In this document: piece by piece, positions 20,047-23,611 of the stretch
Numbering within the stretch: position 1 is the first letter of the stretch
How the letters are laid out: each line of letters begins with the position of its first letter
NCBI RefSeq assembly: GCF_016903815.1
Contig: NZ_CP069973.1
DNA from: Escherichia coli
GTDB taxonomy: Bacteria; Pseudomonadota; Gammaproteobacteria; Enterobacterales; Enterobacteriaceae
DNA: 64,000 nt
Reading direction: 5' to 3' (one strand)
Made by a program: the position numbers and the translations under genes
Notes under the pieces: generated by a model
What the model saw: only the letters and a program-made list of their open reading frames with translations
Database searches by the model: none
What the model was told of the DNA's origin: nothing

Positions 20047-20104
20047 GATCTCCGTTGATTTGGATTGACTTCACATCATTAATCACCGCGGTAAAACTTT
20101 ACGG
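20047..20104 (-). repeat. ~58-nt conserved leader element, copy 2, abutting the start of gene 19308..20039
   Basis: See copy 1. This copy contains the RBS (AACGGAGATC) of the downstream gene. Confidence 0.7.
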
Positions 20105-20876
20105 CATCCCGCCATTGAGCAACGCCAATGGCTCCTGATTAAAACAGAATGAATCCCCCACGAAGAAAAAATAAACCTACACGCAGAGTAAAACACACAA
20201 CAACGGCATAAATGGTTTTTAAAAACTACAAAGCCTGAAGGGAAACGGATCCACAGAACGTGCAAACAAAACACCAAAAACGCAATCAGAACGCTTTCTG
20301 CTGCTGTGAATCAACAACAATACCAAAACCTACAGCTTAACCACAAAACTCAATCACAGAGCCGAATAGCGTGTTTAAAACCTGTTTACAGATAACCCTG
20401 CCACAAGAACAAAGTTCACCAATATCAGAATCGATTTTCTCATCCTGAAAATGTTACGTTTCACTACACAGCATAAAAACGATTAACTATTGATAACGTA
20501 AACCTCATCTGAATCAAAACACCAGAACCAATCATCACGCTTTTCCTGAAAAGAGCCTTGCGCTGAGAAAAAACACCAGGGTCAGTTAATCATCTCATCA
20601 ATCTCATCGTTACAAAAACATCCATAAAACCATTTAACAAAATCATCGTAAGCACACAGTAAATCACGCCAGGTTATCTCAGCCAAATTTTCGTTTTACA
20701 TAAAGACACTTGTCTCAGGTTAACGACTAAAAACACAAAAACTCAGAAAAGGTTAAACGTAACTTCAGAAAAATAGAATATCATATTGATTGCTTAAACA
20801 GGAAAGATTGTTTTGTAGTAGCATTAAGCTGATTTTAGTTAACGTAAAAACAGGACTGACAGGTTTACTAAACTGG

Positions 20877-21095
20877 ATGTGTATCAGACAAAGCAATGTG
20901 TATAACAATACTTAATGAAAACACTTGTAGAATTGTTTATGAAAATACGTGTATGTCTGGTAAAACACTTAGTAGAAAATACGTGTATAACACTTACTGA
21001 AATGCTTAGTAAAAATACTTAGTAAAATATGTGTAGAATTATCTATTTAAAAAGATATGTATATAACACTTAATAAAAACATGTGTATATAGTAT
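20877..21095. repeat. Iteron-like array of interleaved short direct repeats
   Basis: RTGTGTATAACAMTACTTAATRAAAA-type units at 20896, 20981 and 21056. CTTAGTARAAAT x3 at 20968, 21005 and 21018. TGTAGAATTRTYTAT x2 at about 20926 and 21032. RYGTGTAT cores also at 20877, 20947 and 21081. Confidence 0.7.
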
Positions 21096-21359
21096 CATAC
21101 CGACATTCTCAACATCTTCAGACTTCCATACATACTGGGTGTTGATTTCTCACTTTTACAGCCAGCATGGAGTTTTCTGTCCTAAAAACAGAGCAGATTT
21201 ACTCTGGAATTATTTTTCTACCCCCGTATTTCAGGCCCCAGAAAAGACAATCCGAAGCAAACCGTTTGTCAGCCTCCATATCATCTTTTACCCCCGGAAA
21301 GTGATCGCGTTTACAACCAGAATGACAGCCATACTGATTATGTCGTCTCCCGGCCCCCT

Positions 21360-21563
21360 TCACATATAACATGCATGTCTGTCATTGCTTACTGCTCCAC
21401 ATGACCGGATTTCACATACAGGATGCACATTCAGTGTTTTTATCGCTACTATAACAGACAGATTACTGTCGTCTTTACTCTTCAGATTGTTAATCTGACC
21501 ACAAGAACAGCCGAACGGCAAAACGCCCTCCACAAGGGGCACATGAACCATAGTTGATAGCAT
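21360..21563 (-). CDS. Possible small Cys-rich (zinc-finger-like) protein
   Basis: From the ATG at 21563 (AGGA 6 nt upstream): MLSTMVHVPLVEGVLPFGCSCGQINNL...HPVCEIRSCGAVSNDRHACYM, 67 aa, CxC...Cx4C spacing. Divergent from gene 21731..22522. Confidence 0.35.
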   Translation of the reverse strand: MLSTMVHVPLVEGVLPFGCSCGQINNLKSKDDSNLSVIVAIKTLNVHPVCEIRSCGAVSNDRHACYM

Positions 21564-21730
21564 GTTTTTCCTAATCAAGGAATAGTTCAGGAATATTTTA
21601 TTGCATTAATAACTGGCGAATAATCGTTCTGTGAACACAAAATGCTTTTATTTGTAAATTTTATTGCATTGCACTCGTTTTATTGATATGGGGTTTAATA
21701 ACAGATAACCCGGAAAGAAGGAGAAAACAG

Positions 21731-22522
21731 ATGACATTACGGATTAACGATCAGGGGCGAGATAAACAGAATCAATTTTTATCGAAAAATGGAGAAAATC
21801 TGAATTCGTTAAAATCGCGTCATGTGCAGGATAGGCATTTACCTGAATGGCTTAAGGATAAAGTTGCAGCATTCTGGTTTTGTCTGGTGATAAAGGATAT
21901 GAAAGTGTCAGGGAGCAGTTACTATGAACTTACCATGCAACTTCCCACTTCTGAAGAATCTGTTTGCATCAGTAAGCTGTCATCCTCAACCCATGAGATT
22001 CGGCTGGAGATCATCAGGCGATGGATTGATAGTGTAGCGCAGATAGAAACGGAAGCTTTTACTAAAAATCTCGTTGATGCCATCTATAAAAACTGGAAGG
22101 AAATCGGGAACAAAAACCAGGCCACATGGCTTAAAAAAAATCCGGAACAACTCGAGTGGGCATGGAAATATATTAACATTCGTATTCCCGAGTCACATTT
22201 AACCTGGTTTTGCCCCGTCAATAACGAAGAGAAACGCATTGCCATCTTAGCATTGCTTAAAATACTGTATCCCGGAGATATACCATGCCAGTACAACGAC
22301 AAAGAGTTTCATGTCGGGATCTGCGCTGAAGAACATTTTTACAGAAGAATGCACGACGCTTTCAGAAAACAGTTTATCGACGGGAAAAAAGATAAACGGG
22401 TACAAATTAACGTAAAGATATCACCGTCCGCAAAAAGCGCTCTGGACAGACTGACCAGAGCGAGGAAAACAACACAGCAGGCTATTCTGGAACAACTGAT
22501 TCTGAACGGTAGACTGGATTAA
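21731..22522 (+). CDS. Hypothetical protein, function unknown
   Basis: Track ORF 21683..22522. The preferred ATG is 21731, with AAGGAG 9 nt upstream. No recognisable catalytic motif. The tail ..ISPSAKSALDRLTRARKTTQQAILEQLILNG resembles a ribbon-helix-helix segment. Confidence 0.6.
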   Translation: MTLRINDQGRDKQNQFLSKNGENLNSLKSRHVQDRHLPEWLKDKVAAFWFCLVIKDMKVSGSSYYELTMQLPTSEESVCISKLSSSTHEIRLEIIRRWIDSVAQIETEAFTKNLVDAIYKNWKEIGNKNQATWLKKNPEQLEWAWKYINIRIPESHLTWFCPVNNEEKRIAILALLKILYPGDIPCQYNDKEFHVGICAEEHFYRRMHDAFRKQFIDGKKDKRVQINVKISPSAKSALDRLTRARKTTQQAILEQLILNGRLD

Positions 22523-23505: not shown

Positions 23506-23611
23506 CTCTTCCCTCCACACTTTGTCACTCCAGATTTTTTCACGTCCATATTACCTGAATGATAAACCGGATTAGTGTGATCCGGTTCAGCGAAATCAAC
23601 AGGATACCGGT

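Follow-up and report, generated by a model that had tools for sequence, protein, structure and literature searches.

Classical iterons, such as those of pSC101, P1, F and R6K, are nearly identical direct repeats of 17-22 bp that lie about 22 bp apart and are bound by winged-helix initiators of the RepA type. Domains of the HUH Rep/NS1 type recognise short direct repeats beside nick sites. In phage-inducible chromosomal islands (PICIs), a rep-ori segment drives autonomous replication, and its origin, located immediately 3' of a rep gene of the primase/helicase type, has an AT-rich melting region with one set of iterons on either side (Fillol-Salom et al. 2018, PMC6092414). We analysed a repeat array at positions 20877-21099 of a 64-kb stretch of an Escherichia coli chromosome (contig NZ_CP069973.1; hereafter the window). 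According to the annotation of an identical copy, the window lies within an integrative island of the CP4-57/CP4-44 kind that adjoins the gsp operon. The array is the variable core of a non-coding module of about 715 bp (20503-21217) with swappable DNA on both sides, and the module is linked to an HUH Rep-like gene of the YagK/YfjJ ("inovirus Gp2") family, referred to hereafter as the Gp2 gene. What the sequences show directly is that the repeats exist, are conserved, vary in copy number and are linked to an intact HUH gene. The array is probably a functional, sequence-specific binding site for a protein of some kind. Our tentative reading is that it forms an iteron-like region with multiple binding sites, which would serve the island's HUH Rep-like protein as its origin or docking region.

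The locus resembles PICIs and Staphylococcus aureus pathogenicity islands (SaPIs) in being a chromosomal island with an AlpA-type regulator, an initiator-like gene and an AT-rich direct-repeat array nearby. It differs from them in that the gene encodes an HUH endonuclease, the array lies 0.84-1.06 kb 5' of that gene, and the repeats form a single block of two interleaved box types, A and B, with irregular spacing and variable copy number. The structural model of Gp2 is closest to nucleases that act at HUH/Tyr origins, where the origin-binding domain likewise reads short co-oriented direct repeats near the nick. At those origins, however, the repeats are regular, number 2-5 and lie no more than tens of bp from the nick sequence, which is usually located in a hairpin, whereas here 7 A and 6-7 B boxes, all degenerate, extend over 220 bp with no recognisable nick hairpin. 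Like the origins of the iteron plasmids, the array is rich in A+T, lies near a cognate gene and combines same-orientation direct repeats with DnaA-box-like sequences, but iterons are bound by RepA-type and not HUH proteins, and the DnaA-like part of the box is here not the conserved part. Repeat-tuned promoters and contingency loci, and multi-site arrays for small regulators of the excisionase/Cox/AlpA type, are similar in that the number of repeats upstream of a promoter-like site varies and an AlpA gene is present in the same islands. The units here are 12-34 bp long and heterogeneous, unlike a simple tract of 1-7-bp repeats, and the promoter role is a predicted one.

An earlier note on this DNA had described three families of direct repeats at 20877-21095. 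All three were recovered at, or within 1 nt of, the positions it gave. By inspection of the sequence, the first family starts at 20896, 20981 and 21055 (not 21056), the second (CTTAGTA...) at 20968, 21005 and 21018, with the copy at 21005 the only exact fit to the earlier consensus, and the third, TGTAGAATTRTYTAT, at 20926 and 21032; further RYGTGTAT cores are present at 20877, 20947 and 21081. Pairs of identical direct k-mers were counted in this 219-bp interval and in 2000 shuffles that preserved dinucleotide composition. The interval contained 101 pairs of 6-mers (31.3 ± 7.9 in the shuffles), 56 of 7-mers (10.4 ± 4.6), 30 of 8-mers (3.4 ± 2.6) and 16 of 9-mers (1.1 ± 1.5), and none of the 2000 shuffles equalled the observed count at any of these lengths. 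The repeats are genuine and far above chance. Reverse-complement matches were depleted (5 compared to 22 at k = 6, and 0 at k ≥ 7), and a repeat finder returned overlapping direct families in the array with no comparable inverted families. With at most one mismatch allowed, ACTTAGTAAAA has five matches in the window, where 0.86 ± 0.85 are expected, and four of the five are inside the array. No occurrence of the array motif was found in the window outside the array, and the repeat motif of a paralogous island type (L107) occurs in the window at chance level.

Every A and B box lies on the + strand and none on the - strand, in keeping with the earlier proposal of a conserved same-orientation cluster of the iteron or operator kind. 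The helical-multiple spacing that had also been proposed was not borne out; start-to-start distances are irregular both for A boxes (19, 51, 34, 48, 26-28 and 24-26 bp) and for B boxes (57, 25, 12, 13 and 51 bp). The array is 24% G+C (76% A+T). The only open reading frames (ORFs) of at least 40 aa near it are two with TTG starts (47 and 41 aa), which overlap its left end slightly, and diversity within the module shows no codon periodicity indicative of hidden coding, unlike that of the Gp2 coding sequence.

The module is widespread. A query of 801 bp around the array matched 2154 places in 1582 of 5426 complete E. coli genomes, all of them chromosomal and no more than 8 per genome, and at least 1582 of these 5426 genomes carry the module. 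No phage matched the array region and only three plasmid records did; the K-12 islands CP4-6, CP4-44 and CP4-57 are without the module. About 100 copies were gathered through the exact 24-mer at 21100-21123, and flanks were counted only where enough flanking sequence was available. The Gp2 gene was found on the - strand to the left of the array in 62 of the 63 copies with sufficient left flank, either about 1.0 kb away or, where an insert of about 1.15 kb is present, about 1.9 kb away. The joint conservation of array and flanking gene, a check that the earlier note had called for, was thus seen in these 62 copies. To the right, a GTPase gene was present at 2-3 kb in 39/39 copies with sufficient flank.

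Homology between islands, assessed with a 3.2-kb query, extends from the Gp2 stop codon to 21217-21230 (BLAST breakpoints at query positions 1910-1923) or, in a subset, to 21425, with different genes beyond. Because the genes beyond about 21217-21230 vary from island to island, those at 21360-21563 and 21731-22522 cannot encode a dedicated partner of the array. The earlier note had named these two genes, along with the HUH Rep-like gene, as possible sources of the binding protein; they were ruled out as exchangeable, island-specific cargo, and the HUH gene, linked in 62/63 copies, stands. In islands with a gene for a 176-aa protein, homology spans 19308-20214 and restarts at 20503. This protein (locus L009 3902-4432) is named "DNA-binding protein" by NCBI and has no Pfam, NCBIfam or PDB match. 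It was also considered as the dedicated binder and rejected: it is present in 21/63 islands, and it is cargo because its homologues (50-60% identity), on Klebsiella chromosomes and plasmids, sit in unrelated contexts.

The length of the array was compared in 94 copies between the anchors TTTACTAAACTGG (20864) and CCGACATT (21100). There were 32 lengths, from 117 to 236 bp, the longest being that of the present window and its near-identical relatives. Alleles differ by whole units gained or lost, with insertions and deletions bounded by repeats, most often in the 13-bp tandem core at 20962-21027. Array length was uncoupled from Gp2 identity or clade and from the presence of the 176-aa gene. No copy lacked the array; the number of A boxes never falls below four, and the first units and the final B+A unit are present in every allele. 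Nucleotide diversity was determined from an alignment of 37 distinct copies, all without the 176-aa insert, and because the copies were selected by the 24-mer it is biased downward near 21100-21123. It was 0.04-0.095 in the Gp2 coding sequence (mostly at third codon positions), 0.08-0.19 in non-coding DNA at 20091-20750, 0.07-0.11 in the retained array columns and 0.12-0.28 in the right arm of the module at 21111-21230. The retained array was similar in diversity to the Gp2 coding sequence and less diverse than neighbouring non-coding DNA (0.15-0.19) and, at matched distances from the 24-mer anchor, than the right arm. Boxes and the positions between them were about equally conserved. The array evolves fast in length and slowly in sequence.

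The 243-aa Gp2 product matches PF11726 (E = 1e-35) and PF23343, "Replication-associated protein ORF2/G2P" (E = 7e-9). An HYH motif (residues 101-103) and Y213-x-x-K216 show little or no variation in relatives down to 23% identity, and the module-linked ORF is intact with both motifs in 53/62 copies. As in rolling-circle Rep proteins, a metal-binding HUH motif and a catalytic Tyr are thus carried on an HUH fold. Comparison of the Gp2 model with known folds gave figures of 8.3 for the minute-virus NS1 nuclease, 7.4 for SIRV1 Rep, 7.3 for B19 and bocavirus NS1, 6.8 for Helraiser, 6.7 for AAV Rep, 6.2 for IS608 TnpA and 5.6 for the RepB origin-binding domain; Foldseek placed the same proteins at the top with E-values that were not significant. 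The label "HUH Rep-like" is justified because the fold matches, the motifs are conserved and the ORF is intact in most copies. Residues 153-189 form a low-complexity insertion of about 37 residues, predicted to be disordered, between the HUH core and the Tyr helix; relatives of 190-207 aa are without it. Nothing was found in the full-text literature on the function of YagK/YfjJ or on the non-coding module; a preprint that includes a Gp2-like protein in the core gene set of a widespread class of islands assigns it no role.

A second, divergent Gp2-family gene is present in the window at 16069-16635 (-), together with an AlpA gene at 14937-15170 (-), within 14937-18128. Upstream of this second gene lie 1.5 kb of ORF-poor, AT-rich DNA (28-38% G+C). 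The two Rep-like genes are in tandem, each with a long non-coding leader upstream. The coordinates of the array, the module and the linked Gp2 gene are collected in Table 1.

Table 1. Features of the array, its module and the linked Gp2 gene (positions in the window).
Feature	Position	Strand	Remarks
YagK/YfjJ ("inovirus Gp2") family gene, 243 aa	19308..20039	-	predicted HUH-type Rep-like endonuclease
Gp2-proximal upstream block	20040..20214		kept with the gene; Shine-Dalgarno site and imperfectly conserved hairpin 20111-20132
Replaceable segment	20215..20502		in 21/63 islands a ~1.15-kb piece with the 176-aa gene (+) instead
Module left arm	20503..20876		A/C-rich on + strand, nearly structure-free, conserved in all copies
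Repeat array	20877..21099	+	interleaved A and B boxes
A boxes (RYGTGTAK), n = 7	20877, 20896, 20947, 20981, 21029, 21057, 21081	+	
B boxes (VCTTRNTRRA; CTTAGTRAAA-like), n = 6 strict	20910, 20967, 20992, 21004, 21017, 21068	+	
Degenerate seventh B box	20923	+	
Degenerate 13-bp tandem core AAAATACTTAGTA, x5.2, 67% matches	20962..21027	+	Tandem Repeats Finder (TRF)
Sigma-70-like promoter match TTAATA-17-TATCAT, 9/12	21070..21098	+	overlaps last A box
Module right arm (CCGACATTCTCAAYATCTTCAGAC...)	21100..21188		best-conserved stretch
Terminator-like hairpin CAGAGCAGATTTACTCTG	21189..21217		T runs on both strands; right boundary of module

Distant relatives provided a further comparison. Among the upstream regions of ten distant Gp2 genes there were one clear array, three modest three-copy clusters (L109, L107 and L122), two marginal cases (an enriched 7-mer count in the second spacer of L120 and a two-copy pair in L123) and four with none. 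In Jinshanibacter sp. (L120 3573-3729), a 36-bp unit is repeated 4.4 times at 98% identity between the AlpA and Gp2 genes, and each unit contains a 24-bp palindrome (TTAGTATTAATA/ATATTAATACTAA). This array lies upstream of a Gp2 gene whose product is 36% identical to that of the window; it is independent of the E. coli array and far more regular, and is the cleaner iteron- or operator-like array of the two. No homology to the module was found in intergenic regions of distant relatives. Upstream arrays recur in the Gp2 family without being universal, which moderately supports the link between array and gene; the recurrence fits an AlpA-type regulator as the binder about as well as Gp2. A scan of GTDB genomes with the Gp2 protein yielded just two contaminated contigs of metagenome-assembled genomes (MAGs). 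Contigs of a "Bacillus sp." and a "Bacillota bacterium" MAG (L003, L004) carry the island with 85-87% protein identity, and this placement is almost certainly due to binning contamination.

One record bears on the form that such islands may take. CP057032.1 (pRHB40-C01_2; L118 and L119) is a circular "plasmid" of 62,375 bp made solely of a CP4-like island. Gp2 genes occur in it three times and AlpA genes twice, alongside F4-like fimbriae, and an integrase gene follows directly on the GTPase-to-DUF4942 operon. Its annotation includes no plasmid genes for replication, partition or transfer. The record has the appearance of an island that has excised and circularised, though it may also be an assembly product.

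If the array is the origin or Rep-docking region of the HUH protein, several Gp2 protomers would bind the co-oriented A and B boxes after excision. Host factors might join them there, the A box approximating a DnaA box, and the 76% A+T DNA would be bent or melted. The HUH/Tyr active site would then nick nearby, with the invariant block beginning at 21100 as one candidate location, and the nick would prime rolling-circle-type replication or maintenance of the circular island, the number of boxes tuning affinity. Binding by Gp2, nicking and replication are steps that we infer. In favour of such an origin, the module is linked to an intact HUH gene and its repeats lie in one orientation in very AT-rich DNA. 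As at iteron origins, the presumed initiator gene is adjacent and co-inherited (62/63), although HUH proteins are not the classical class of iteron initiators. The array also contains six DnaA-box-like sites (TTATACACA once and five with one mismatch), all in one orientation, compared to 1.1 ± 1.0 expected. The circular record CP057032.1, an island with no plasmid replicon, and the independent array at the Jinshanibacter Gp2 gene speak for the same reading, as do the resemblance of the Gp2 fold to origin-binding Rep/NS1 nuclease domains and the low diversity of the retained array positions.

Several observations weigh against this reading. The array contains no match to the IHF consensus. Within the A box, ATGTGTA is constant but the bases that make it DnaA-like (..TATAAC) vary between alleles; a cluster of DnaA boxes as the selected feature is weakened accordingly. 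The region 20150-21100 is poor in structure on both strands (z ~0 to +1.5), with neither a nick hairpin nor a single-strand origin. Many alleles disrupt the hairpin at 20111-20132 (70-90 bp upstream of the Gp2 start), which was rejected as the nick site for lack of conservation, and a weak 4+4-bp stem around TAGTATC is missing from half of the alleles. The array lies 0.84-1.06 kb from the Gp2 gene (about 1.9 kb with cargo) with a replaceable segment between them, and its units are heterogeneous and irregularly spaced instead of uniform and regular. The hypervariable copy number (32 alleles) speaks against a tight dosage constraint. Even where the neighbouring Gp2 gene is frameshifted or has an identity of no more than 62-69%, the array keeps its sequence. 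No array is present at the second Gp2 paralogue (16069-16635) or at K-12 yfjJ/yagK, 4 of the 10 distant Gp2 genes are without an upstream array, and the circular record is a single case and a possible assembly product. Since the units are irregular and the initiator is of the wrong class, the array is not a classical iteron origin. It is also without the nick hairpin of a canonical rolling-circle double-strand origin, yet it may work like one.

Close behind the origin or Rep-docking reading, and also possible, comes a regulatory one. A small promoter at the right end of the array would fire rightwards, and the repeats would serve it as operators, as activator sites or as a curved UP-like region; more broadly, they would belong to an ancestral divergent control region between the Gp2(-AlpA) and GTPase-DUF932-antirestriction operons. 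The binder would be an island regulator of the AlpA or YfjR/YafY type, or host nucleoid proteins, with turnover of units tuning expression, and a variable copy number does fit tunable promoters. The sole sigma-70-like site in 19900-21800 overlaps the last box (1 found, compared to 6.2 ± 1.9 in shuffles), and TATAGT at 21088-21093 is conserved, with TATAAT in some alleles. The match itself is modest (9/12), however, and the -35 element and spacing are lost in the "...TAGTACCATTC" allele class. Downstream, about 115 nt are conserved and close in a hairpin and T run right at the end of homology, but this hairpin has just 5 pairs and is mismatched in half of the alleles. RNAalifold gave weak values (-5.9 on the + strand and -11.9 on the - strand), with one pair showing two-sided change (T:G in 10 rows, A:T in 17). 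No Rfam family was found at gathering thresholds in the whole window or at E ≤ 5 in 19900-21800, and 11-mer complementarity to the rest of the window was at chance level.

The distant relatives also bear on regulation. In Providencia the layout is compact, the Gp2-AlpA and GTPase-...-antirestriction-DUF932 operons diverging from an AT-rich spacer of 449 bp that contains three direct repeats. This compact layout is the ancestral one, and the E. coli module therefore sits in the former divergent control region of the two core operons. Repeats adjoin AlpA in Jinshanibacter and in L122, and a 24-bp palindrome in each Jinshanibacter unit is what is expected for dimeric regulators. In the present islands, however, cargo in either orientation separates the module from the GTPase operon.

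It is unlikely, though less so than the remaining explanation below, that the array is a tolerated minisatellite, that is, an AT-rich, recombination-prone tandem repeat in an acquired spacer, probably coated by H-NS and without sequence-specific function. Its conservation would then stem from a recent common ancestry of the islands and from homogenisation through unequal crossing-over. The repeats do have the form of a minisatellite or variable-number tandem repeat, being arranged head to tail with a copy number that differs among close relatives; this describes form only, and function is still possible. The 32 length alleles among 94 copies, the loss and duplication of units exactly between repeats, the uncoupling of length from Gp2 clade, the degenerate 13-bp core found by TRF, the about equal conservation of boxes and inter-box positions, and the many distant relatives without an array are all as expected of such a repeat. 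A tolerated repeat accounts less well for the absence of any copy without the array, the minimum of four A boxes and the constant first and last units. Likewise, substitution diversity is below that of flanking non-coding DNA, strand polarity and two interleaved box types are kept across alleles, and the module is retained while the DNA on either side is swapped.

Another kind of cis-acting site is improbable. The array might be an origin of transfer (oriT) for a helper conjugative element, with Gp2 as a Rep-like relaxase, a site that a helper phage recognises or uses for packaging, or a site resembling a centromere. Sites for terminases, accessory proteins and ParR are often arrays of direct repeats. 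HUH proteins include relaxases, and the island has genes of the plasmid leading-region type (DUF932, antirestriction and RadC). These genes point away from the array, however, and this counts against oriT because, from the known polarity, early expression from the T-strand would need them to point towards nic. There is no inverted repeat or nic-like hairpin, and the Gp2 fold is nearest to Rep/NS1 proteins and not to relaxases, so that none of an adjacent relaxase, an inverted repeat at nic and leading-region genes directed towards nic was found. Jumbo-phage transduction has been reported to move islands with Gp2-like core genes (bioRxiv 10.1101/2024.08.29.610337), but no gene for a terminase or a partition ATPase lies near the array. 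Finally, we agree with the earlier note that this is not a CRISPR array, as there are no identical 24-40-bp repeats with uniform unique spacers and the units are degenerate, overlapping and irregular.

The rest of the island is organised as follows. From the left, a degraded integrase gene and insertion sequence (IS) elements are followed by a YagK/YfjJ gene with an AlpA gene, then by a TIR-domain gene, the "inovirus Gp2 family" gene (19308-20039, -), about 1.7 kb annotated as empty, and two hypothetical genes. On the right is a conserved rightward operon of GTPase, DUF905, DUF932, antirestriction, RadC, DUF987, YeeU/CbtA, DUF957 and DUF4942 genes. No tRNA genes were found. A gene-exchange slot extends from 21217 to about 23534, holds cargo in either orientation and closes about 80-85 bp before the GTPase start codon (23612), at which point conservation between islands returns. 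A second slot, to the left of the Gp2 stop codon, holds a gene for a TIR protein, a restriction endonuclease or an acyltransferase, depending on the island. A perfect inverted repeat with 8-bp stems, AAACCGGAT-TAGTGTG-ATCCGGTT, is present at 23564-23587 in the leader of the GTPase gene and is conserved despite differing upstream cargo; it is a candidate operator or RNA hairpin for the main operon of the island.

The DNA between the Gp2 gene and the array shows a marked strand asymmetry. At 20150-20870 the + strand is 41% A, 22.5% C and 14% G, and almost no secondary structure is predicted; in the left arm of the module, folding gave z ~0 to +1.5 and minimum free energies of -2 to -7 kcal/mol per 120 nt. 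If transcribed rightwards, 20150-20870 would give a C-rich, G-poor RNA like a Rho-utilisation site, and if transcribed leftwards a long G/U-rich leader of Gp2. In the right arm, long-range pairings TTCAGA/TCTGGA and (T/A)TCCAT/ATGGA(G/T) are possible.

Islands of this family are present in most E. coli genomes and carry toxin-antitoxin, antirestriction, adhesin and anti-phage cargo in the exchangeable slots that flank the module. Should the array prove to be a neutral minisatellite or a set of tunable promoter elements, it would still be a hypervariable marker with which islands can be typed. If it is the site of the HUH protein, a 0.7-kb fragment and a 243-aa protein give a handle on whether and how excised "cryptic" islands replicate, which would bear on the persistence of these islands and on the spread of the defence and virulence cargo that they carry. 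A broader and more doubtful proposal is that CP4-57/CP4-44-like islands are replicative elements in which the YagK/YfjJ HUH protein fires from the two-box array, and that turnover of boxes sets the strength of replication or the (in)compatibility of co-resident islands. Islands that replicate from a two-box array would represent a new type of Rep and origin for integrative islands and would not be inert remnants of "cryptic prophages".

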